Position numbers and translations under genes: made by a program
Shown: one piece after another, positions 3,001 to 27,400 of the stretch
Numbering within the stretch: the stretch's first letter is position 1
Layout: every line of letters starts with the position of its first letter
The notes under the pieces: model-generated
Told to the model about the DNA's origin: nothing
Seen by the model: only the letters and a program-made list of their open reading frames with translations
Database searches by the model: none
From: Vermamoeba vermiformis
Taxonomy: Eukaryota
Assembly (NCBI GenBank): GCA_045837725.1
Contig: JBEWZL010000224.1
Location: 1-32,111, forward strand
Length of the DNA stretch: 32,111 bases
Reading direction: 5' to 3'

Positions 3001-3050
3001 AGTTTTTACACCTGACAATCGAGCGTGTAACGGTCACTTCCTATTCGGGC
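1..3050 (-). other. Non-coding, exon/intron-like repetitive region (possible spliced lncRNA or decayed mobile element interior)
   Basis: GC-richer blocks alternate with AT-rich blocks bounded by minus-strand GTAAG donors (CTTAC on + at ~20, 1142, 1400, 1538, 1980, 2159, 2293) and AG acceptors. The one exon tested (2298-2464) has stops in all 3 frames. Segments at ~140-200 and ~400-700 resemble ~2410-3000. Confidence 0.4.
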
Positions 3051-3196
3051 ACACAATTTTTTAAACCGACCTGCGTCGACAGTGAAAACCGACGTGAGTC
3101 GAACAGCACGTGCTGCCGAAAAATTATCCACCCAACAAATTTATGCAAGCAACACGTAACTATCAACCAACACGATCACCACAACCACAATGGTCG
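541..3196. repeat. Dispersed 17-bp hairpin motif TCGACC-CTTGT-GGTCGA and associated modules
   Basis: Copies or variants at 541, 673, 2682, 2815 and 2976, looser variants at 145 and 2416, and an inverted copy at 3182-3196. The module ATA(A/G)CTCGCGCTG...CCG(C/T)GGC(G/A)CGT starts at ~597, ~2739 and ~2903. Confidence 0.85.
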
Positions 3197-3721
3197 TGTA
3201 ATCAATTTTATTTTAATTTTCTTGTGCTTATCGTTGCGTTGAACTCAACGCAGGCCAAGTTTACCGGACGATCGGCTGTCTGTTGCACTAACTTGTGCTC
3301 GTACAGTGCGTAGAGCACTGAGGTGAGTTTAGTTAATTAATACCTCAGGAGAATTAAAATTAATATTAATTTCGGTAGGTTTTTCGGCTGATCGGTTATG
3401 CAACTCGAGCTCACTGCTGCGTATGGACTGGTGCATTCGTGCCTCAATTCAAAGAGGCATGGTTTTAGGATGTAGCTCACGAGCAGGCAGCGTTTTTATG
3501 GTGCTAGCCAACAAGTATGCTGCGTTTGGTAAGTAAAATAATTTAAATCCGTAATTTTCGATGCGCGGGATCTAATTTTTATTGTTTAAATAGTGCTGCT
3601 GGCCTCCTTATTTACTCCCAGCGTTCTATGATATTAAATTGGACTGCCCACTAGTGGCAACCTGATGAGGTAAGTCAGGTTAGGTTGTCTTAATGATCTA
3701 ACGAATCTCATCCAGGATTTT

Positions 3722-3856
3722 CCGTGTGCTCCCTCTCCCTGTCCCCATGACCAGGAGCGCGCTTTCTTGCCTATGACCAGCTGCTCGTGCTCTCCCTCTG
3801 TGGCTGGTCATGCTCCCTCTCTTGCCTGGTCGTGTTCTCCCTCCGTGACCAGCTGG
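3722..3856. repeat. Degenerate pyrimidine-rich short repeats
   Basis: Recurring TGACCAG, CTCCCTC and TCTTGCCT motifs. Confidence 0.5.
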
Positions 3857-3949
3857 ACACACAGCAGTCGCATGCGCTGCAAGCCATGCCGAATTGGCAT
3901 GCTATTTGTAATAAATAACATATCATACATTTCTGTCCCTTTGTTTGCC

Positions 3950-4295
3950 GGACTACACCCTTGTTCTGCAGAAAGGCGTAGTTTTGAGGACTACGCCCCC
4001 GTTCTGTTTCGCAAGGGCGTAGTTTCAAGGACTACACCCCCGTTCTGTTTCACAAGGGCGTAGTTTCAAGGACTACACCCCCCTTCTGTTTCGCAAGGGC
4101 GTAGTTTCAAGGACTACGCCCCCGTTCTGTTTCGCAAGGGCGTAGTTTCGAGGACTACGCCCCCGTTCTGTTTCGCAAGGGCGTAGTTTCAAGGACTACA
4201 CCCCCGTTCTGTTTCGCAAGGGCGTAGTTTCGAGGACTACGCCCCCATTCTATTTCGCAAGGGCGTAGTTTTGAGGACTACACCCCTGTTCTGCA
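3950..4295. repeat. 41-bp tandem minisatellite with an internal inverted repeat
   Basis: Unit GGACTACRCCCCCGTTCTGTTTCGCAAGGGCGTAGTTTCRA starts at 3988, 4029, 4070, 4111, 4152, 4193 and 4234. A degenerate unit starts at 3950 and a partial one at 4275. ACTACGCCC/GGGCGTAGT forms a 9-bp stem. Confidence 0.97.
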
Positions 4296-4697
4296 ATGGT
4301 ACGGTGTTCTTTGCCCTTCAGAACGCGAAACCCTAAACTGTAGTAACCTAATAACTACTATAATAGCAGATTTCATCTTAAAAATGGGCTCACACGTGGA
4401 GGGGCTTTATGTCCACAAACAAAAATATCTAACAAAAAATAAAAGGATAGAAATCATCTTGTCAAATAAACAAGTTTTGTCCAGATTGCTAATTTCAATG
4501 TTGAAGCTGTCTATGTTGGAGGTTGTTAACTTGACCTCTCTCAAGCTCATCGTGTTGTAACACCAAGTGATCACATTGTTTTGGTACTCCCCTCTGTTTT
4601 CACTCAGCTTGTCACAAATTTACAAGAGTTATGGTACCTGAACTACAGATTATTCAATTCTCCCAACATTCAAAGTCAAGCAATTTGTTTATTGAAT

Positions 4698-10167
<5,470 letters not shown>

Positions 10168-10345
10168 CGTTGTGAGCTCGCTCAAAGTTGAAATGGAAAT
10201 TTTTTTTTGTTTCGCCGTGAAAAAGCCGAAATTTATTGAGCTCAATTTATTGTTGTGAGCGACACACGAAGATATTTACTTTTCATCAAATAACAAAGTT
10301 CGAACAGATTGGATGTTGCTAAATCCATAAATACCTCGCCCGAGT

Positions 10346-13547: not shown

Positions 13548-15163
13548 TTAGTGCTTGGGCTTCTCGGCGGGGGGAGCAGCACCAGTAGTGGGCAAACCAA
13601 CGTACACCTTGAAGGTATCGTAGATGAACCATTGGAGGGCAGTCAAGGTACCAATCATGAAGATACGCATGCCAAGACCACGCCAGATACCAACAGGACC
13701 GAGCTCCTTGAGGATTTGACCAACAGGAGGACGAGTGGAGTACTGGTTCAACTTGGAGACGACAGAGTCGGCAGGGTGAGAGACGACAGCGCAGAAGACA
13801 CCAGCGATGTAACCAGCAGCGAAGGAGACACCGAGTTGTTCAAGCTTGGAGCACTCGCTCTGCACCGACACGTTAGTCATCCATAGAACTACGTAAGGTA
13901 TTAAAGGAGACTTACTCTGGGCTTGGGGATGACGTGAGCGTAGAGGGCTTGGACGGTTCTCTCGAAAGCCCAGAACTTCATCATAGTGTAAGGGATCTGT
14001 CTGGACCATAAAGGAACCAAACCCTTGTAGAGACCAGCAACACCTTCAGCCTTGATGATTTGACTCATACCTTGTCTATGTAAGAAATGGTGGTTAGTAA
14101 CGTACTATAATAAATTATTGACGATTTGAAAAAAGCGCGTTGCGTATCATATTTTTGCAAGAAATTTATCGCAGCTCGTCATAATTACCTCAAAGTGGTG
14201 GGGAAAGTGCGGTTAGCAGGGTTGGAGGTCTGAATTCTGACCTTGACGGCTTCCCAAGGGCACAAAGCAGCGTCAGCGATGAATTCAGCGCTGGCAGAGG
14301 CAGACAAGTACAACAAGTCCTTGTACTTCTTGGCGTTCTCCTCACCGGCAGCGTCAGCGTAGGTCTTCTTGAAGTACTATAGAGCGACAAACTGGTTAGA
14401 TCACGAAAATACAAAATTATTTTAAAAAATATGCAAAAAATCTAGGACATGCATATACGCTCTCGACTTAATATAAGGAACAATTATTGGGACTTACTTC
14501 GTAGAAACCGAACTTGCAGAGACCTTGAGCAGAGTAGCCGATCAAAGTAGGAGCCCAGCCGAGAACGAGACCTCGGGCACCTTCCTTGGCGAGAATTTCG
14601 CTAACGGAGGTCTTGATACCGACCTATAATACGATATTAGTAACGCCCACAAATTAAACAAATTATTTTTGAATCTGATAGATGGGATTCAACGGTTATC
14701 CGTTTGCTTGTCGTCTATAAAACTGATATAATTTTCGTGTATTTGTATGTAAGGTATCAGTGCATATTCATACAGGATATTTAATTATACCACAGCAAAA
14801 GCACGACAAAAAGATCGCGGTTCTCGCTTGTGGTGTAAATTAATACCCTGCAGGGAAATATTATTTGCATAATATGCTGACCGATAAATTATCTTTCAGA
14901 CCGCTTCGACAAAAACAATAAATAATTCGATTCATGAAGATAATTATTTGCGGCAAATCTGAATCCGTTAACAAGTTTGCAATTACATTCAAGGCTGAAA
15001 GTGTAATACGCTGTTACTACTATGTTAGTACACTTACTTGCTTACGGCACTTGATGATATCGAGGGTGACGACACCAGTGTGGGTAAGACCGCAAGAAAG
15101 CAAACCACCCAAGGCGCAGAGGCCGTAGAATTTGGGAGTGTACAATTCGACTTGTTGGGACAT
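13548..15163 (-). CDS. SLC25A3: Mitochondrial phosphate carrier (SLC25 family), multi-exon
   Basis: Spliced translation gives MSQQVELYTPKFYGLCALGGLLSCGLTH, GWAPTLIGYSAQGLCKFGFYE, CPWEAVKVRIQT, SHPADSVVSKLN and RIFMIGTLTALQWFIYD. Confidence 0.93.
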
Positions 15164-15249
15164 AGCTAAAGAACTTGAATCTATGGGCTCCTGTTACGGA
15201 TAAAAACAACGACTATCCTGAAAGAAAAACAAAATGGTAGCACCGCGAA

Positions 15250-15410
15250 GCGGGTAGAAATTTTAGCGAAAAAATCCATAGCTTTCGGGAGCGGGTAGCA
15301 TTCGCCAAAGATTTGACTAAATTGGTGCGGGTAGCACTAATAATAAGGCGAAGGCTAGCATTTTAGCGAATAAAGCAAAGCGTTTCTAATTTTTATTCGG
15401 ATGCGGGTAG
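15250..15410 (+). repeat. Subterminal direct repeats of the transposon left end
   Basis: GCGGGTAG at 15250, 15291, 15327 and 15403; TTTTAGCGAA at 15261 and 15361. Confidence 0.8.
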
Positions 15411-15550
15411 CTAACAGACTGTAAGCGGCTTCAAAGTACCGTCTATTATAGTTCAATAATCAGTTAAAGTTATACTTGTCTTTCTGTTTCCCGCCACTAG
15501 TGGAATTAAAAAAGATGACCGTTTTTTTTTCTTATTATTCTTTCGCCGTC

Positions 15551-17702
15551 ATGAGCAGCTGCACGTCTCCGCAAGTTGCTAATCGCGGAGGCTGTCCCAC
15601 GGCTAACGTGGAGTCAGTCCCTACCGCGTTAGGAACCAAAGGAGACAGGCAGCATGCCGGAATTAATTATTCGGATGTGGTGTTTGGCTTTAATTCATTG
15701 TTCGAGCAATCAACAACATCAAAAATTTCTATAGAGTAAGTAATAGTATTTATTTAATTTAACGGGTATTAATTAAATATTTCAGTTTTGTTGTTTGGCG
15801 AGTGATGCAATATTCTAAGCTTGATAATGCACACTTCGAGCGCGTAAAGACTTGTTTGGTCAAATACTTGGCAGGAGAATTACGAATTTATTATAAAAAT
15901 AATGTTCGAGCAAAACTTCGAGGTATGAACAAGTGATCCGGTGCAATATTAGACTGCTGACAATTAAATTATAGTTAGTGATACAATAGATAGCGCATTA
16001 AGTGCCGCCAGGCAGTTTAATTCAATGGGAACACCCGAGACTGTCCGTACTTTCCAGCTGGCCGATACGGAGAGTCCTCTGCGGGTATATTCCGACGTAA
16101 TGCCCATTGATGCGTATTCTAGATTTAAAGTCAGCCTTATGGAAGACACCTTATTGTACCACGAGTGCAAATGGCTTAAAGGAAACCTAGCAAAAACAAA
16201 AAGGTTGTACGCCGCTTTCGGGCAATGCCATACCGGCATGTTTTACAAGTAAGTAAGAACTATAACTATTCTTTCATTACTTTTGCTAATACGGCAGTGC
16301 AGTGGAATTTATTTGCCGGCGGACACTAGCTGTCCGGAGTCCGTGCGATTCATAATAGAGAGTGCTTTGAAGACGGGATTAATGATCTCGAAGTCTCTCT
16401 GTGTAATGATCACAGTATACCCTCCCTGTGACAAAGACACCAGTATAACGGCGCGTGCCGCCGGAAAGAAGATGCACGGGATGGCTTACCACTCCGATGG
16501 TATGGATTGTAGTGTGCAATAATGCAGGGCATTGACTAGTGCTTTATTTAGGAGCTGACAAGACGCAAGGATTGTACCTTGGGGATCCTAGTAAAGTCGC
16601 TGTGCACACTTTTTCGGGGTTTATTGACCCTTTGAACATCGGGCGACAAGTTGCATGCAATGACTGGTACTTCACTGTCAAGCATAATGAATCGGGTGTG
16701 GAGACTCCTTTTCAATTGCACGACAACTGTTTGTTAGTTCAACCACGCGGCATGCAGACAGCGTACAAACACAAAGTGCACGGCACGTACAACAGTTTCA
16801 TGCGTTGGGTTGCGACTGTACGGGATGTGGACGGAGATTACCTGCAAGCATGGTTGTGTAGAAAGAAGAAAGTTGTTGAAGCCGCTAAGTTCTCAAAGCA
16901 TCAAAGCCTCAGAGAATGGCTCACCCCGAGCGAACAGTGGATTGTGCGCAGATTAGCTAAACCCTCAAGGCCTCCCACGGAGTGTTCAGCTGTAGTCCTC
17001 GGCACCTGCGTTAACTGCAAGCAAGCTCCGTCGAAAGGTAGTAAGGCAAAGGATCAAAATGTAGCAAATATTAACTTCATTTCAGATCAACGCTGCTGCC
17101 CAAGCCCCGTTGTTTACGGGGATTGCGACCTGCAAATTGGACTCTCATATACAAAGGACTCGGTTTTCCAGTCATCGTTCTTTTCGCGTTCGGATCTTGG
17201 AGCAAGCATGGAAAAAAGCAAGGAATATGGGATCGCCGCAATGTACCTTACTTCTCAGCATCGTTTGAATGACTGGAGTCGCTGGAATTGCAAGACTCGG
17301 CCTACAATTCGGATCGCTGGTGCGGGTGGCAGAAAGAAGCAACGAAATCAGTAAGTTCAGTTGTATTATCATACCCAACGTAACACTTGCCAGGTGGCAC
17401 CATGTAGCACCGCAGTCACTAGCACAGAATTCTGCGTTCTTTTTCAATATCACTCACGGTACTCCCGTACGAATCTTGGTTCAGGATGACAAAGACACGG
17501 ACTGTTTCATTTACACCGGTAAGCTTCTGTCTTTAATGATTGCAACGTGAACTGAGCATTATTATTAGGCCTGTGGCGCGTGTACAACAGTATGTTACAT
17601 GCCGGAGATGCCGCATCGGATGGCCAACCTGTGTTCCTGACGACACTTCTTCGAGAAGAAAGCTTTAATTACGAATTAACAAAGGAGACATTCGTAAATT
17701 AG
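15551..17702 (+). CDS. AlkB-like 2OG-Fe(II) dioxygenase fused to a C-terminal SRA/SAD-like domain (transposon cargo, ~600 aa, 6-7 introns)
   Basis: AlkB-like part: KRLYAAFG...FYNG, HSD (16490-16498), VAVHTFSG, LHDNCLLVQPRGMQTAYKHKV and RWVATVR (HxD...H...Rx5R). SRA-like part: VYGDCDLQIG, GIAAMYL, AGAGGRKK, QSLAQNSAF, GTPVRILV, FIYTGLWRV and PVFLTTLLR. Stop TAG at 17700-17702. The ATG could alternatively be at 15515. Confidence 0.78.
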
Positions 17703-17747
17703 AATTGTAAGTTTATCCGTGCGTCTAAAACAGAATCTTATCGTGGT

Positions 17748-20329
17748 TCAGTTTTGTTCTCGAGTGTGTATCAGTCGAGCAATTATTGTCTTGCCCTGCA
17801 CACTCGTCACCGTGCACAGCCAAGCTATGTTCGACACTTGTATGAATTGTTCTTCCTTTGATTCGTCAACCAGAAGCAAGGAGCCGTCGTTATAGGGAGC
17901 TGTTGTTACATGGTTCGTCGAAGCAACTAAGTCGATTCCATGTGCCGAAGCCCTGATGAGAAAGAAGTTGACTCGTCGCACAACTTCATTATGGGCCTCT
18001 TTGCACAGCACATAGTGACTGCAGCGCTTGGCATTTGGATGTCGGCTAAAAGTGTACTTTTTGCCGCAAAATATTTGCGACCCCTTCTTTAGCTTAAAAA
18101 AGCGCCACAGCTCAACATCATTGACTGGAAATAACAGCAAAAGTGCAGCATTCTCTACCGGTGAGCATTTGTATTTCTTTACTCGATCCAAAATTTGTGT
18201 GCCGTTGGGCATTTTTCTGTTCCATTCAATGTTAGGAGTCGTTGTAGCTATGTCTAACCTCTTGAAGACGGCATGACTTGTATCTTTGTTGCTAAATTTG
18301 TCTCTGATTAGGTACTGACTGTTGGTTAAGATCGCAATTAACAAAAGCTGCTCGGATTGACTCGCGTTCGTCCCTTGAACGTGCGAGATTATTGCTCCCA
18401 TCTTGTGTTCATAAGGAAAGGCGGCGTGGGTCCAGAATGCACCAAAGTTGATGACTTGTTGGGGTAAGTGTATCAGGCAGTGGAGATTGATTGTGCACGC
18501 ACTAACCTGATACAAAGTAGGAAATGTGCGGACAAATTCAAAAAGCAAATCGCTTGCCTTTTCTATCATGGAAATTGTGATGCTTGGTGCCCACAAAAGG
18601 TGTAATGCGGAGCAAAGCAGCTTCAGATGCGACCAATACTTTTCCTCGAGGAATGGTTCTAGGACGGGGATGGCAAGGTAAAGGAGCCAATACTTGTGTT
18701 CGTGTGCTGTACTTTGTTAAAACAATTTATAGGTGTACTATTTACCTTTCCACGACCCAAAGTCATCAATTCTTCGTGGTCTTGACTCGCGACCATATGG
18801 TATTGTTATTGTCTCATGTATGCGATTGATTTCGGCAATGTGCTTCTTGATGCTGAAAGCCCTATCTGTGTATCTGTCGGTAATCCACAGTGTCCACAAA
18901 AGGTTTCCGATGTTCAAGCACACGCAATGCATTGGATCTACTACACTTTGGGCAATGATGTCAAAGTATGGCAATAAGTACAATGGACTTAATCCGGCGA
19001 CTCCAAATGATGCACGGCCACTTCGAACGGCTTCTAGGGCAAGTTGTCTGGTCCTGAAGTGTGTTCGAAGTATTGGCAGATCATTTGTCACGGTTACAAA
19101 TCTCATGCTGCCATCGGCATAGATTCCTTGTATCTCGCACACGGTGCAGCCAAACATTGCCGTGCAACTCTCGAAATTCATGATTGGAGCCTGCAATACG
19201 TAAGTAATCGAAAAGTAATGCAGTCTCTACCTTAGCCTTTAAATCCGCAGTTATATATAGCAATATTGCACGCACTTTCCATTGTTCGTAGTCCAATGGA
19301 GTTCGAAACAGTTGCACGAGCTCATTTACAAACGGCTTCAAAAATACTTGCATATTTGGGCTTCCTGACCCGATCCATAAGCAGTTCATAAGCATGTTCT
19401 CTTCTTTGAATCTCTCATTTGGCGGTAAATTATTTATCGATGTAAATAATGGCCACAGATGAATGCCGGAGCCGAACATTACTCCCCCGTCGATGTTGAC
19501 ACCAAGAGCCAAGTCAAATGGAGTGTTGAATAAGCCATGTTCCCGGCGCAATCTACTCCAAACCGCACCATCGGCAATGTCGTCAATGGTGTCTTTTGGC
19601 TGTCTCTGGTTGTCGAAGTTCTTTATGAGCGTGCTAACAAACGAAACATCTATAGTTGTCAAAATGGTATCGGTGCGTAATCATATTAATAATACCTTTC
19701 AGTTTCTCGTGCAATAATTCTTTCAAAGGAATGTATAAAAAGCTATTTTTCATTCTCGGTTCCCCGTGAGCTGATGCCAAGTAGCGAGCTTCATGGCAAA
19801 TCGGGCAGAGTTGCTCTCCCGGCTCGTAAATGCGAGAACATGGGTCACAATAATCGTAGTGTTTGAATTTATCCTTTAGATAACTCCAGTTCTGTGTTAA
19901 TTTATTAGCAAAAGTATAACCGAGCATGCAACCTGCCTTATAAAATTGATTCTTGTTTGTCGGAAGAGGGCTTCCGGGATAAGCAAAATCAATTAGCGCT
20001 AGTAATGCATCCAATTGAGTGCCGCCAACTTTGAATTTGAGAATGTACTTGAGGAGAAGCAAGCTGAATTCCAGTGTTGTTATAGTCGATTTCTTTGACA
20101 ATAGAACGTCCAAACCCGTGAACTCAAACTGATCTCGATTACAATCCACTTCCTCTTCCTCGGAGAAATCAATATTACGACTATAAGCCAGATCAAATTA
20201 ATACTGGAATTAAATCAGTAAATCTTACTTATCATTGGCCAATAAGGGTAGTTCAACAGTGTTCTCTATTGCCGTTATACGGTTATTATTTGACAGGGCT
20301 CTTTTCGCCGTCCGTGGTGTTCGAATCAT
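17748..20329 (-). CDS. CACTA/EnSpm Tnp2 (TnpD)-like DDE transposase, multi-exon
   Basis: CxxC...CPxC knuckle, DIADGAVW, VNIDGG, LWPL...NNLPPNERF, FLKPFVNEL, ADLKAK, GCTVC, DPMH, HCLIHLPQQV..FG and FPYE. The four track ORFs are separated by short GT-AG intron-like segments. Confidence 0.88.
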
Positions 20330-20394
20330 GATGTGATACAAATAACAAAAACACAAATCAAAATCAAATCAACAAATCAATTATTCAATCAACA

Positions 20395-21895
20395 ATGGAT
20401 CATTACGAACAGTTATTAGATAGGCTAACGACTTTCTTATTAAAGTCAGAGAACTCGGCGAGGGCTCTCATACCTGACCAAAATATCAAAGGATTTATCA
20501 GCCGTTTGGTTAATGCTGCCCTGCAAGCACGAGTAAGTCATGTAACGTCGATGGCATTTATTTATTCTATTTAGTTTGCACTCGCTGCCAACGTAACGGT
20601 GGAATGCCTATATGACTTGCCTGCAAGTGCAATTGATGAAATGGTGGTAACCGCTCAATTAGGCAACCCCAACAACAAGCTTGACTGCTTAATTGAGCAT
20701 CTCTTTTCATCTGCTATTATAACTTGGCTAGAAGATCACTCAACGATTAATAACCTAAAAGTATTTGTAGCCGCTAATGACATTGGTGACAAACTGTACG
20801 GGTCAACAGGCAGAGTATTAAGTGCCAAGGTAGACTTTGTTAGACAATTTGTATTGCTGGCAATGTCACCCAATCCAAAGGAGCTCGCACTACAAAATGC
20901 CGGTGCTAAGCATGTTGTAAGTAAATATTTTACTTTTCGAGCTCTGCTGACAGTGTTGACCTAGCCACCAGCTAAACAAAGTACTCAAACTCGTAAGTGT
21001 TGAATAAGTAGTGATTCACTCTAATAAAAAATAGGAGAGGCTACACGTGCACAGGCAAGGCAATTGTTTGAGTCACGCCAAGCTCTCCAATTACAAAGCT
21101 TGGCAGCACCTAGTGAAGTCCCTGCACGTCCTAGAATACAAGTAGACGAGGAAGATAATCAAGCTCGAACCAAGTTTAGCCTGACAACTGGAGATTTGGC
21201 AACACTAACACAAGGGCAGCTTTTATGGACAGCCAAAGAAATGCAGAGAAAGTTGCGAGAGTATAAGGTTTGTATTCAATTTGTGTGTTAGTGGCTCACT
21301 TTTCTACGCACACAGAATCATCAGCTTGTGCTCCCGGAACAACTCCGCTCCGACCCTCGTTATTCTTGGCCAAGTGAAGCCAAAGGAATTGAACTAAAGA
21401 AGCAAATGCTTGCCAGTGGAACTTGGCCCATCACTCTTAATTCGAACAGAAATCAAACGCACTGGTTAAGTAAACTCTTGTTTCACACCGGAATTAATTG
21501 GCAGGAAGGGTCCATCAAGCAACTTGTAAGTGACCAGTATTTAATAACCGAGTCTAATTCTCAATTAGTTGCTTGATAGTCAACCAACCATCGATGCAAT
21601 TGTTTCCCTATTTCGCGCGATGGAAATTTCACATTGGCTGCAACCAAAACCAGAACTCTACACGTATCCAGTTTTTATTCAACAACTCCTCAAAACAATT
21701 ATTATTAATGCCCGCTCCGACGTCAAAAAAGGAAGATCTACAGTCAATGTATTGTATTTGAGACAAGGCGGAGATCAGCCGGCAAAACACATTTATCTCC
21801 CAAAGCGACACAAGCATGCTTCCAACAATAGCAACAGGCAAAATAATCTTGACGATGATGAGGATGGCATGGTAATTGATATGCCATCCGATTAA
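20395..21895 (+). CDS. Hypothetical transposon accessory protein (TnpA-position gene), multi-exon
   Basis: Starts MDHYEQLLDRL. Track ORFs 20599, 21064, 21328 and 21569 are linked by short GT-AG introns, including a microexon near 20965-20992. Acidic/Asn-rich tail. No family recognised. Confidence 0.65.
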
Positions 21896-22510
21896 TGCGA
21901 ATAGAATCACAATAAAAATTAATTAAATTTAATCCCCAAATTCTTGCTCGCATTTAATGGCTAGTCCGTGCCTACCAGCATTTTGTTTAATTGCTAAATT
22001 TTGATCGCATTATCATACCCGTATTAGTTGACTCACTTTTCGCGACTAGCCAAAAGATAGTAGGAAAACGGCAACAAGCCGAGTAGCTTTTCGAGACAAA
22101 ATATGAATAGCCAAAGTTGATTTGCTATCCGCGTAAATTTTGCTCAGGATTTTGCTCGACCGCCAAAAAAAGTGAGTTCAGATCATAAAATTAATAAAAT
22201 AATATCCTGTTCGCGCTGTCTGCATTTCGTTGTTGCACATAATTACAACGAGGAGTCTGCGCCACAAATGCAATGCAATTAAATTAAGCAAATTACATCA
22301 GGTGTTTTTGGCGATCACTGGATCATCCGTGATCCGCACAACAATCAATTTCTCGTAATTCCTACTAGCCATCGTTAAATTTATTACGTTAAAGAGCAGG
22401 TAGTCGAGCAAAGGAAAGTTCAACGAACTTATCAGCTGTCAATATCCTTAAACCAAGGTTTTTTGGGCATAAAGGGTCCCAAAAAATCACAGTTTTGCAG
22501 TTATTTAAAT

Positions 22511-24441
22511 ATGAAGAGCACAACGGTAGTCATCATTGTCGCAATCATTTTTTTCTGCGAGGCACGGAGCACATCCGTCGTTTGGAAACGCTGTCCTGAT
22601 GATAGCCTCACGAGACTTGCGCATGTAAAGAGGTAAGCTGGTATGATGTTATTATTTTCTCGATAATATTGATTTAATAGTCTTCATAGTGCTGTTTTTC
22701 AGTGCACCTCGATCGAAGTCCCGCTCGACTGGGCCAATCCTGCCAATTCCAAAACAATAAGTTATTTTATATTGCGTGCATACAATAGTTCTTTGTCCCA
22801 ACCACCCTCCGAACAACTTTGGATGATTCAAGGAGGTCCTGGTGCTTCAGGTGCAGGTCTCGAAGATGCAGCACTCAATGTAGCTTCACAAATGAATCGT
22901 CAAGTCACAGTGTATGTTCCTGACAATCGTGGCACTGGCTTGTCATCGTGTTTGGGCTGTAACATCACTGAATGTAAATGGCAGCCAAATTTGATGGACA
23001 TCAACTACAAACTCTGCGCGAAGAAGTTATTTGAGCAATACGGCACTGACAGTACTTACTTTACGACCACAAATGCCGCCTTGGATATCGACAATGCGAT
23101 CAGCTTGATCAAACAATCGGAACAAGTGTCCAAGGTGTATATTTACGGCGTCTCTTACGGCACTTATGTTGCGAATCGATTTGGATTGATTGCACTGAAC
23201 AAACCAGATGCAATAGTGCTCGATAGTACGTCCTTAATATTAACCAAAACGAGCACCACTAATCTTATTTATCAGGCCTGTGTCCAGCTGACATTTGTCG
23301 TATTGACATGTACGACAGGAATTGGGACTTTGTTGCTCGTTCAGTGTTCACGTTGTGCGGGCTAGAGAGCAAAACGTGCAGAAAATACTTGGGTCCAAAT
23401 CCAAACGAATTGGCACAGCTAGGTATGCACGCGGATCCTCGTGTACCCGATTGACTTACTCTCATAATTGACTTTTCGCTTGTTAGTTCAAACTCATTTC
23501 GAACAAAAGCTTCCTTTTTGCAACGGTGCAGTGAACATTACTTTCGACCAGTTTTACGACGCCACCCTCCGATTCGTTCCAGCGGGCTACAATCGCGAGC
23601 TGATAGCACCTTTAATCAACAGGTAGGCGGAAGAATGCAAAATTATTTCTTTAATTTAATTTCTGACTACTGTAGGTTTATCCGATGTTCGCCAACAGAC
23701 ATTGCCGAACTCAACTATGCCTTCAAGTCGTTATCTTTATATTACGCAGAAAATCGTCGTCGTATATCTGTATCTCTACCTATTATGCTCACAGTGACCC
23801 TCTCTGAAATATTCGACTCCGATCCAGAGCATCCGTTATCCCTTGAAGAACACACAGGAATCGAGGTAACACTACGAAGTAAAGCTGCGCAGTAGACTAA
23901 TTATTGTTTTAGCGCACTTTACTGTTCTCGCCGAGAATTACCCTAGCAGCAGCTATTGCTCGTCCCTATTGGCTGACGTACAAGCCCGATCAGTTTTGGA
24001 ATGCATATTATTCTGAAGATATTCCGACTTTGATCTTGCAGGGCGAGCTCGATCCGCAAACACCTCACTTCTACGGCATTCATGCGATAAGCAACTATAA
24101 CAAGCCTTATCAATATCTCGTCTCTTTTCCGTACACGCCGCATGAAACTGTTCGCAGCGACAAGGTGCGTAGTGTTACTAATTACGAACGTATCACAACT
24201 AACCAAGTCATTTAGGCAAACTGTGGAGCTCAAGTCATGGCATCATTTTTGAACAATCCGACAGGGGACATCGATACTTCGTGCACGAGTCAAGTGTTGC
24301 CTATCGATTTTGAAGGTACGTTTAAAAGTATGTAGGTGTTTGAATTAAGCACCTAAACTCTTTTTCTAAGGCACAACAGCCGCAGCAAAGCAGGCCTCGC
24401 AGTCATTCTTTGGCACGCCGTTGTTATGGGGAACTGAATGA
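22511..24441 (+). CDS. Secreted alpha/beta hydrolase, peptidase S33/TAP-like
   Basis: Signal-peptide-like start MKSTTVVIIVAIIFFC, then EVPLDW, QGGPG, DNRGTGLS, nucleophile GVSYG, QGELDPQTP (Asp) and PYTPH (His). Confidence 0.85.
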
Positions 24442-24496: not shown

Positions 24497-27400
24497 TTAC
24501 AGTTTAGAAAGCAATGGAAAATCGGCGATGAGACCGCGCATCGTCTCGGTCTGACTTTCGCCTTTGAATCCACTCTTTCGCAAATTTTGTACACGAGTGA
24601 CAAATTCACCAAAAACAGCGTCATCTCGATAACTAAAGAAGTTCATGTTAGTTTAATGTTATTTGGGTTGATTTTACGTGGTCCCACTTACGTGTCGGTC
24701 AGTTTGATGTTTTGGCCGTAGTTCTCCAAGGCAATGACTTTCATCGCTTGCAGTGCACTGACAGCTGTCTTAAGCGTGTCCGACGAACAACTCTCTTGAC
24801 AGCTCAACTTGCCCTCGTTGACAAGTGTCTCGCACAGCCATTGCATGCGTTGAAGTACAGAGTGGTAGCCGAGACCGTTGGGCTTCAAGTTGAACAGTAC
24901 CACACTGGCGATCCAGTAGGAGTCGATGAAGGGCCAGATCAAGTTGCCATAAAAGGTAATGGCGCCTTGTGCGTCTTTTTCTTGCGACAGACTTACGTTG
25001 TTGTCACCGTCAACTTTGATCACGCGTTGCTTTGCAAGGTCATCAAAGACGTCATCGAAGTTCTATCAAAATGTTAGTTTCCTGAGCATGCCGGTACTTA
25101 TTTGTATGAAATACCTCTTTAGACTCGGGGTTCAACTTGTAGACGAACTCATACTTCAATAGCTCGGCAACGAACTGAGCCTCAGCAAGCAAGTCAGCCT
25201 TGGGCACGGAGGATTGATTTTTATCTGAGAAAGTGTTAGCAACGCCATTCACACAGCACTCAATATACCATTTCTCTTACTAAAAGTCATGCTGACTAAC
25301 GCAACAATCAAAAATCCGTCGCGAGCAAAGAGATGTCCGAGCGAGTTACGGTAAATGCTGTGCACTAGCGTCGTATCTGGCGCCATTTGTATCATGTCTT
25401 TGCGCTCAGTGACCTATTAGCTGTGATTAGTATTGCTAGATAAAGGTTCTAATCTTCGCACCAATTGGCCCATCATGTGCAAGCCGTGAGTGGTCACTTG
25501 ACCAGCAGTCATGTTCGCAATCCAGTCCATGCAGCCTGTGTTACGGCGATAGATTTCATTCAACAACCAATCAACTTTAGCAATTAGTTGTTGTCTGTCA
25601 AAAAGTAGTGTCAGTACACGTAACTAAAAAAAAAGCAGAATTACGCTTACTTCGATATGCCTAGTCGGTACGTCATCAATATTGACGAAATGATTGAAGA
25701 AGGGCTCCAAACAATCTTCTGGTTCAATGCAAGAATAATCTCTTGCCCCAACACCACGCTGATGTCACGGCGGTCCTTGGCGTGCTTGAACGGATCGAAG
25801 CTGGGATTCTTTGTTTTCATCGCCTCAGTATATTCCTAGATACAAGTATTAATTGAGGTACGCGAGGGCAAGCACAAAAAAAGCAAAAGAACCATCATTG
25901 CCAAAAGCAAAAAAGAAATACGCCCGCTGTGGGGCTCGAACCCACGACCACACGGTTAAGAGCCGTGCGCTCTACCGACTGAGCTAAGCGGGCTGGCGTT
26001 GATTTGGCTTTCAACAAAATTTTCGCCGCGTCATTAGAGAGCAGACCGAACCCACGCACATCTCCAACGAAACCGTGTTTTTCTCGTATCGCTTACCTTC
26101 GCGCATTTTCGAAGTGATATAGGCTTGCCAACTTTTAGAGAGATCCTTCCAAAGTCCTCCGCTAAAACAGATCGTGCCTTCAGCAGATTCTCCAAGCTTT
26201 CCTTTTTCTTGCTTTCGCCGAGGAGCTCGCGAGCATAAGGAACGGCCTCAATTAGGCGTTCATAGTTCAAGGTGATTGGCACGTAAGAAATCTCCTCTAT
26301 GCATCAAATGTTAGGTTACGCGCAACAAAAATTCGAATGGCGATCTGGCGTACCGTAGTCTCCTTCAAAATATTTGTCGTTGATGATAGAAACAAGACCC
26401 AGCTTCGGTTGCAACAACTTTCCACTGCGGCTGCGTGTTCCTTCGATGAAGAACTCGAAGGGAAGTCCTTGGCCGATCAGCTGTTGCACGTACTCGGTGA
26501 AGATGGCGTTATACAGCACATCACCGCGGAATGTCCGACGAAGGAAGAATGCACCTCCCTTGCGCAGTAGAGTAGCAACGAATGATAGACCTAAGAAATC
26601 CTCGCCTGCAGCAATGTGTGGCACTGGAATGTCATACGCAAAGAGCACGAATGACACGATCAAAAAGTCAATGTAACTCTTGTGCGTAGGAACAATAATG
26701 ACCGGTCCTCGTTGAAGCAGGTCAGGTAGCTAAGAAGCCCGTATTAGTAACTAAAACTAAGTCCTTCGTAAGCCGTGAAAAGTACCGTTTTCAGCATGTC
26801 CTCGTTGATCTCAACTTGTCGGTAAATACTTCGCCAGACTTTTCGGAAGAACCACGCGAGGCCACGAATGACATTTAATTGAAGGCTAAAGCTTATTAGT
26901 AATGTGATTCTCAAATACCATCGTTAACATACGTTGCGGCCATGCGCTCAAAGATCTCGTCAGCTTTCTTTTCCAAAGATGAAGCAGGAATGCCTTTTTG
27001 TTCACTCACTCTGTAATACCAATTAATAACAATCACAGGCGATACTACTGGAAGATTACGTACTTGGCAATAGCTTCTTGCACGCGTCTTGAAGTCAACA
27101 CTGAGTCACGCAAGTTACCCGCTGTTTCGGGAATAGTAATCTGATAAAGTTAATTAGCTTGATTGCGCTTATCGACGTAAATACTATTCATACCTCTTTT
27201 GAAGCATTAAGCGCAAATCTGAGATCCGGGAACAATTTCTTTTCAATAGAAGAATGTCCATCGATGTCTCTGCTCGGTAGTCTATTGTACAATAAATCTT
27301 CTAATCGTGGCTCTTCGATTTCTTCCTTCAACACGAATCTTTGGAGACCTACACGTGTGATATTAGAACGTAATTTCTAGGTAAAGAACTATCGTACCGT

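Follow-up and report, generated by a model that had tools for sequence, protein, structure and literature searches.

Does a transposable element of Vermamoeba vermiformis carry its own enzyme for finding and erasing DNA methyl marks? This question is raised by a stretch of 32,111 nt (contig JBEWZL010000224.1; the whole stretch is called the window below), in which a gene at 15551-17702 stands next to a gene for a CACTA-type transposase. A first-pass annotation, made from the sequence alone, had proposed that the former encodes an AlkB-type dioxygenase joined to an SRA domain, and that it rides inside a CACTA-like element as a device against silencing. As judged from reading frames and homologues, the fragments at this position splice into one real and intact gene for a two-domain protein, which we call the fusion gene. 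Its status as the cargo of a transposon is plausible and unproven. We put at about 0.45 the probability that the fusion and transposase genes, together with a third, form a transposon of the CACTA superfamily, perhaps one that lost its mobility only recently, in which the dioxygenase-SRA (likely AlkB) fusion is a cargo that would erase methyl marks.

The fusion gene, its family and its SRA domain

The proposal that seemingly unrelated frame fragments belong to one spliced protein of about 600 aa has stood up, since they form an open frame of 600 aa with colinear relatives. Joining seven exons (15551-15735, 15786-15922, 15975-16248, 16303-16499, 16552-17350, 17394-17518 and 17569-17702) gives a single open frame of 616 aa, interrupted by six GT-AG introns of 43-54 nt. 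Within this frame lies an in-frame GT...AG interval of 48 nt (17038-17085), whose retention gives 616 aa and whose removal gives 600 aa and a seventh intron. The frame of the nearest relative, P0001, ends a few residues past the same Lys|Gly point, and that of P0002 resumes further on; since this is the pattern of an intron with a stop codon, the interval is probably a spliced intron of the fusion gene as well. In BLASTP, residues 142-605 of the spliced protein align with P0004 (E 4e-40), residues 146-611 with P0007 (E 4e-31), residues 249-577 with P0005 (E 1e-31) and residues 233-600 with P0013 (E 3e-24). The alignment with P0004 runs unbroken through the junctions of exons 3-7 and that with P0005 likewise through the later junctions, thus homology backs the splice model. 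Exons 1-2 (residues 1-107) and the start codon are without homology support among the relatives found.

All the motifs that had been listed for the dioxygenase could be located in the 600-aa model (RLYAAFG at residue 184, HSD at 262, YKHKV at 336 and RWVATVR at 349), and the set of residues for binding of iron and 2-oxoglutarate (2OG), described as complete in the first-pass annotation, is indeed present and conserved in the family: H262, D264, H338, R349 and R355. Further motifs are CVNC at 417, RCC at 429, AGAGGR at 504 and YTGLW at 555, with PVR between the last two. The expected Cys-rich linker was found as CVNC...CC between the two domains, and its four-cysteine knuckle may bind zinc.

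With exon 5 as the query, relatives were sought by HMMER among 1.84 billion representative proteins, and 12 were returned at E <= 0.001, seven of them at E <= 1e-10. Four long single-frame relatives have the same layout, namely P0004 (728 aa), P0007 (575 aa), P0008 (706 aa) and P0013 (414 aa, a cluster mate of P0012), and the closest relatives of the fusion, P0001 and P0002, are 58% and 65% identical to it. P0004 is a Trinity transcript in the EukProt set for Vermamoeba vermiformis; the others come from Logan, ENA and JGI assemblies of aquatic or other metagenomes, and none of those found is fungal. A scan of JGI metagenomes gave a single locus, L001 (4872 bp), with an intron-bearing copy of the fusion gene whose intron positions after 'FY|N' and after 'H.DG' are shared with the window. 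Downstream of this copy, L001 bears three small minus-strand frames (3042-3617, 3644-3982 and 4083-4487) without a Pfam family or likeness to the neighbours of the gene in the window. Word-based protein searches recovered only P0007 itself and, for exon 5, no protein of similar length. Three sub-family alignments brought up no relative in IMG/VR, so that nothing points to an origin in giant viruses; in tblastn P0013 matched no plasmid or phage, and the NCBIfam and PADLOC scans gave nothing relevant.

The sequences of the family are only ~25-35% identical in pairs. Nevertheless, HxD is kept in all seven sequences that cover it; of the 13 sequences compared at the other positions, all have the distal His, the second Arg and QPxGMQ, and 12 have the first Arg. 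That catalytic residues are kept at such low identity argues for a predicted active enzyme under selection. The two cysteines of CxxC occur in all six sequences carrying the SRA half, and shorter fragments also have Cys in the same columns. Judged from these comparisons, the fusion belongs to a small, rare and patchily distributed eukaryotic family that is not confined to fungi.

The fold of the C-terminal domain was assessed on an AlphaFold model of the homologue P0013 (predicted local distance difference test, pLDDT, 73.5; predicted template-modelling score 0.52), not of the window protein. Foldseek gave 113 matches of this model to the PDB at E <= 0.001, and 31 of the 35 matches listed are to proteins named as having an SRA domain. 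TagI ranks best among them (E 1.3e-8), and KRYPTONITE, UHRF1/NP95, UHRF2 and SUVH5/6/9 are included (E 1.3e-8 to 1e-5). Superposition on the SRA domain of SUVH5 gives a template-modelling (TM) score of 0.68-0.74 and a root-mean-square deviation of 3.0-3.4 Å. The remaining four listed matches are entries for the mouse oocyte cytoplasmic lattice, which presumably contain UHRF1. At the sequence level, P0013 passes the Pfam profile SAD_SRA (PF02182) at residues 255-388 (38.0 bits, cut-off 30.7; E 1.8e-9; the match spans 18-142 of the 148 profile positions), P0008 (22.1 bits) and L001:2177-3022 (22.6 bits) stay below this cut-off, and the matches of P0013 to SRA domains among PDB sequences are weak (TagI 0.051, SUVH9 0.16).

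In the window protein the domain is split over exons and was scanned by Pfam piecewise; the single exons, including the pieces of the SRA half, gave no match. However, 17088-17348 aligns with residues 235-311 of P0013 (E 3e-5) and 17395-17517 with residues 321-345 (E 7e-6), and both pieces fall in or adjoin the SAD_SRA match of that protein. The motifs GGR, PVR and Y-x-G-L-W are conserved. As far as the model of a homologue can tell, the C-terminal domain is an SRA fold, the same as in UHRF1/NP95, UHRF2, SUVH5/6/9/KRYPTONITE and TagI, and the fold check suggested with the earlier claim of an SRA-like C-terminus thus came out in its favour. Two differences are worth mentioning: the known SRA proteins have a RING, SET or nuclease partner whereas the partner here is an oxygenase, and several pocket positions deviate from the canonical ones, e.g., YTG stands where YDG is expected.

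Transposon cargo or host gene

The neighbour of the fusion gene carries a Pfam Transposase_21 (Tnp2) match on 19081-19680 (44.2 bits, cut-off 28.6; E 1.7e-11), a weak match to DUF4218 (E 0.046) and a C-x2-C motif after the second acidic motif. By its sequence, this combination of Transposase_21 and a DUF4218-like tail is the TnpD layout of CACTA elements, and the 802-aa frame is intact, so that the adjoining CACTA-type transposase of the first-pass annotation is confirmed. Apparent frameshifts in this gene were considered and rejected, as the overlaps of its frames are GT-AG introns of 39-48 nt. No residue of the protein could be assigned as the catalytic Glu of the transposase. The transposase and fusion genes stand tail-to-tail with their stop codons 46 bp apart. 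On the other side, the third gene, in which no Pfam family was found, is divergent from the transposase gene, with 65 bp between the start codons. The block thus formed measures ~7 kb. It is flanked by the genes for a mitochondrial carrier (minus strand, ATG ~15165) and for a hydrolase (ATG 22512). With CACTA/EnSpm (CMC) elements it has in common a Tnp2 transposase with a DUF4218-like tail, the C-x2-C motif and a second gene beside the transposase.

An observation that speaks for a lasting link between the fusion and transposase genes comes from their relatives. The only database relative of the last transposase exon is P0014 (50% identity, 99% coverage, E 1e-102), and P0014, P0001 and P0002 each lie on one Logan contig of 5310 bp. 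Apparently the three share one contig, as is suggested by the equal length figure and the same source. If so, the linkage of fusion and transposase would be kept between deeply diverged organisms.

Several results weigh against mobility of the block. No inverted termini and no target-site duplication of 2-4 bp were found in any pairing of the four intergenic regions. An exhaustive scan of end pairs yielded AT-rich chance pairs only, and the best inverted match of 15150-15560 to 21880-22520 is 11 nt long with a score of 22, against a mean of 20.7 and a maximum of 30 for shuffled sequences. CACTA occurs at 15335 and 15495, and no TAGTG exists anywhere in 21896-22511. The claim that the gene lies inside CACTA-like termini was thus not borne out; CACTA/EnSpm elements end in CACTA...TAGTG or CAC...GTG and have a 3-bp target duplication, whereas none of these was found here. 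No part of the block recurs elsewhere in the window. The GC content and CpG observed/expected ratio (~1.0) of the block equal those of the flanks, therefore the composition hints neither at a recent arrival nor at decay driven by methylation. Moreover, since convergent genes are closely spaced elsewhere in the window, adjacency alone is weak evidence.

The main alternative is that the fusion is a host gene for chromatin or repair, and not a cargo. The transposase and the third gene would then be a CACTA transposon that landed beside it, or the transposase would be domesticated. We regard this as a real possibility, although not one that we expect to hold. No termini enclose the three genes, and the composition of the block is that of its flanks. 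Furthermore, L001 has the full fusion gene and nothing like the transposase or the third gene on its 4.9-kb contig (best tblastn E 0.036), P0004 is an ordinary Vermamoeba transcript, and the intron positions common to the window and L001 would point to a long vertical history in intron-bearing genomes. Codon usage may lean the same way. The relative synonymous codon usage of the third gene correlates with that of the transposase gene (r 0.60) more than with that of host genes (r 0.27 and 0.04), which would also suit the transposon reading. The fusion gene lies between host genes and transposase, with r 0.30 and 0.22 against the transposase and third genes and 0.45 against host genes, a difference whose bootstrap interval spans zero.

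What a host gene does not readily account for is the arrangement itself. The short distance between the stop codons leaves no space for a transposon end, and the stretch 17680-17780 has no inverted counterpart in the right intergenic region. An apparent common contig of 5.3 kb, with proteins only 50-65% identical to those of the window, is hard to explain by a chance insertion, and the extreme rarity and patchiness of the family would also fit a mobile gene.

The reading of the block as a transposon draws further attention to its flanks. Like CACTA/EnSpm elements, the block has short direct repeats clustered near one end (Table 1), and a similar single 10-mer is present in inverse orientation at 22123-22132 (minus strand), near the other side of the three genes. 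On the plus strand, four of the six GGTAGC sites of the 32-kb window fall in the cluster at 15236-15412, and the minus strand has none. These 10-mers could be either promoter elements or subterminal repeats bound by the transposase. A water-metagenome run (X4) covers 23 of 30 bins with low-depth pieces, mostly at least 99% identical to the window. Its loose ends at 22034, 22123 and 22206 were considered as new junctions and discarded, since they seem to be divergent versions of the intergenic DNA at these positions.

Type of the dioxygenase and the predicted mechanism

The fold of the N-terminal domain was assessed on a model of P0004 (pLDDT 54 overall, ~65-88 in the core, about residues 181-400), for which Foldseek gave 215 matches at E <= 0.001. 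The 42 matches listed comprise 13 AlkB-family proteins, 27 prolyl hydroxylases and two plant oxidases. We conclude that the assignment of this domain to the Fe(II)/2OG dioxygenase fold, as predicted from the model, is secure, and that AlkB is its most likely type, with the sub-family not secured. The listed AlkB-family matches include ABH8 (E 1.6e-5), Escherichia coli AlkB (E 2.0e-5, TM 0.54), ALKBH6 and FTO. The pair of arginines in RxxxTxR past the distal His, which we take to be the 2OG-binding signature of the AlkB family, is kept across the family, and a relaxed hhalign path runs colinearly from the RLYAAFG segment through HxD to RxxxTxR, which is placed on the terminal RYNLTFR of E. coli AlkB. 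The ESM Atlas offers leads only: in its model of P0007, 186 residues align to a bacterial AlkB cluster (TM 0.78), the feature neighbours of P0007 are all PF13532 and then FTO, and the feature clusters closest to it consist of PF13532 proteins from Ascomycota, 590-900 aa long.

The earlier assignment to AlkB is likely and not secured: motifs and Atlas leads favour it, the listed fold matches place prolyl hydroxylases beside AlkB, and profile comparisons did not reach significance. The best match to Pfam PF13532 has an E-value of 0.14, in one of 15 members, and hhalign against E. coli AlkB and an 81-sequence AlkB alignment gave a probability of 1-2% (E 0.02-0.06). Searches of PDB sequences gave no match with the family profile or with P0004, and chance matches only with P0008 and P0007. 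In addition, prolyl hydroxylases, mostly PHD2 entries, hold ranks 1 and 2 among the listed Foldseek matches and are interleaved with AlkB proteins at equal E-values.

These weak points are the ground for supposing that the catalytic domain is not AlkB, and is instead prolyl-hydroxylase-like with a protein substrate, or a very divergent TET/JBP-like enzyme, so that AlkB chemistry would be inapplicable. For the latter variant it can be added that very divergent TET-like cargo proteins, recognisable by structure only, are known (PMC12730594). We think this improbable. No TET/JBP protein is found among the 42 listed Foldseek matches or the Atlas rows, none of the 15 members has a Tet_JBP match in Pfam, and the listed Atlas neighbours point to AlkB and FTO, with no TET/JBP protein or prolyl hydroxylase among them. 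The kept RxxxTxR pair and the colinear path to E. coli AlkB argue in the same direction. Finally, a base-flipping reader as the fusion partner fits an enzyme that acts on nucleic acids, and an AlkB-SRA architecture has been published (PMC4738411).

If the dioxygenase is of AlkB type and travels with the transposon, the following mechanism can be proposed. The SRA domain would bind a methylated base flipped out of DNA and, once bound, would hold the dioxygenase on methylated DNA. The dioxygenase would then oxidise the methyl mark, either 5-methylcytosine (5mC) or N6-methyladenine (6mA), and oxidation of the mark would weaken the methylation-based silencing of the element. What the data show is the gene model, the conserved catalytic residues, the SRA fold, the family of the transposase and that all three genes are intact; we infer the clade (AlkB), the common contig of both genes in a relative, the mobility, the substrate and the anti-silencing role. 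That a CACTA-superfamily transposon of an amoeba-like protist carries such a self-contained reader-eraser, with an SRA domain and an AlkB-type enzyme removing methyl marks on itself, is in its entirety rather unlikely.

Another reading is that the protein repairs alkylation damage (1-methyladenine, 3-methylcytosine), the direct reversal of which is the classical activity of AlkB, with the SRA domain as a generic DNA-binding or lesion-sensing module and no epigenetic or transposon role. The divergence of the SRA domain (YTG for YDG, single exon pieces without a Pfam match) means that it may not read 5mC, and for the fungal version Iyer et al. doubt such recognition (PMC4738411), but we give this reading very little weight, because housekeeping repair genes are broadly conserved while this family counts just 12 representatives among the proteins scanned, the linkage to a transposase is left unexplained, and characterised SRA folds bind modified cytosines flipped from duplex DNA, as the titles of the matched structures state.

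As to the substrate, only transposons carry 5mC in Acanthamoeba and Naegleria, and in protists 5mC marks transposons and 6mA active genes (PMC12695648). AlkB, ALKBH2 and ALKBH3 oxidise 5mC in vitro (PMC6582317). For the fungal fusions Iyer et al. favour N6-methyladenine (m6A), because the fungal SRA domain is divergent (PMC4738411).

Both halves of the proposed system have precedents, as the first-pass annotation had stated. AlkB-SAD(SRA) fusions of the AlkBH3 clade are described in fungi as predicted nucleic-acid demethylases (Iyer, Zhang and Aravind 2016, PMC4738411), and the present protein likewise combines a 2OG-Fe dioxygenase, probably of AlkB type, with a divergent SRA domain. In contrast to the fungal proteins, the present family is found outside fungi (a Vermamoeba transcript and environmental contigs), and its putative AlkB domain is too divergent for Pfam. 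Compared by description only, the present protein also differs in having an inter-domain Cys knuckle and in adjoining a transposase. TET/JBP genes ride on fungal DNA transposons, namely Kyakuja, Dileera, Zisupton, Plavaka, EnSpm, hAT, Harbinger and Helitron (Kojima 2025, PMC12730594), hence EnSpm/CACTA elements are among the carriers. There, the cargo is a 2OG-Fe dioxygenase with an intact frame, which is thought, as a predicted function, to erase the methylation of its own element. However, the TET/JBP cargos have no SRA domain, while the present protein would have its own reader of methylated bases and no TET/JBP among its listed structural matches. The fungal elements also have dikaryan hosts, defined termini, target duplications and many copies, whereas the present host is non-dikaryan, and no such ends, duplications or further copies were found in the window.

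In the literature searched, which did not extend to subscription papers and supplements, no report places AlkB or AlkB-SRA on a transposon. The new part would be the combination, with each half already known: in a protist outside the fungi, a CACTA-type transposase would be linked to an eraser of AlkB type that is coupled to a reader. If true, neither an AlkB-type DNA demethylase nor one with a coupled reader would have been found as transposon cargo before, and transposons beyond fungi and plants would have independently evolved an enzymatic way around silencing by 5mC. DNA methyltransferases and methyl-CpG binders are also cited in the literature as being borne by transposons; together with the TET/JBP cargos they suggest an arms race over DNA marks. 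If AlkB-SRA is linked to a transposase, this would be a solution of a different mechanistic kind, since the reader that directs the eraser to its target is part of the same protein, and the phenomenon would extend to protists. Even if the fusion gene belongs to the host, it represents an uncharacterised candidate family of DNA demethylases with a clear architecture and only a dozen known relatives.

Features of the block and other parts of the window

Table 1. Coordinates of the features of the three-gene block and of the adjoining repeats in the window.
Feature	Position	Strand	Details
Six direct GGTAGC-type 10-mers (GCGGGTAGCA and variants)	15236-15412 (177 nt)	+	Between carrier gene and fusion gene
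Dioxygenase-SRA fusion gene	15551-17702	+	8 exons, 600 aa; open frame and colinear BLASTP matches to relatives
Exons of the fusion gene	15551-15735, 15786-15922, 15975-16248, 16303-16499, 16552-17037, 17086-17350, 17394-17518, 17569-17702	+	
Predicted dioxygenase core, N-terminal half	15975-16640	+	RLYAAFG (residue 184); HxD ligands H262/D264 at end of exon 4
Predicted dioxygenase core, C-terminal half	16641-16840 (approximate, from residue numbers)	+	QPRGMQ, YKHKV (H338), RWVATVR (R349, R355)
Cys-rich linker (CVNC ... CC)	16990-17110	+	Interrupted by the probable 48-nt in-frame intron 17038-17085
Predicted SRA (YDG) domain	17110-17699	+	Split over exons 6-8; matches SRA region of P0013
Tnp2/CACTA-type transposase gene, frame intact	17748-20329	-	5 exons, 802 aa, Pfam Transposase_21
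Exons of the transposase gene	20329-20229, 20180-19696, 19649-19231, 19190-18746, 18706-17748	-	Introns of 48, 46, 40 and 39 nt
Third intact gene	20395-21895	+	6 exons, 425 aa

RNA evidence was available from two RNA runs and one contig set with the same species label, 4-8% diverged, and covers only the highly expressed carrier gene (13548-15165, minus strand), whose introns are confirmed by it. Depth is zero over 15202-23275, including part of the hydrolase gene, which in such diverged data is uninformative on both expression and presence of the block. Reads of these runs differ from the carrier gene at 4-8% of positions, and a stretch of 29 nt between 14592 and 15036 is present in the RNA and absent from the window, either as a micro-exon difference or as a replaced segment. 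The divergence at this gene suggests marked divergence under one species label.

Two sets of repeats lie towards the start of the window. A tandem array at 3931-4334 consists of at least seven copies of a 41-nt unit, 74-94% identical to the reference copy; part of it coincides with a stop-free frame (3674-4063) in which Pro, Ser and Cys are abundant. A unit of ~100-160 nt with the palindromic core TCGACCCTTGTGGTCGATC is repeated, in direct and inverted orientation, at 398-696, 2540-2838, 2959-2998 and 3175-3218, and may be a small non-autonomous element.

The wider surroundings are those of host genes. A pentafunctional AROM-like gene occupies 4698-10275 on the minus strand, and at 24652-29567 an acyltransferase gene (DHAPAT/GPAT-like) is found near a fatty-acyl-CoA-reductase-like gene, a pairing which we assume to suggest ether-lipid synthesis. 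Among the exons of the acyltransferase-like gene, a tRNA-Lys (CTT) was detected at 25921-25993 on the minus strand by ARAGORN and by Rfam (71.8 bits).

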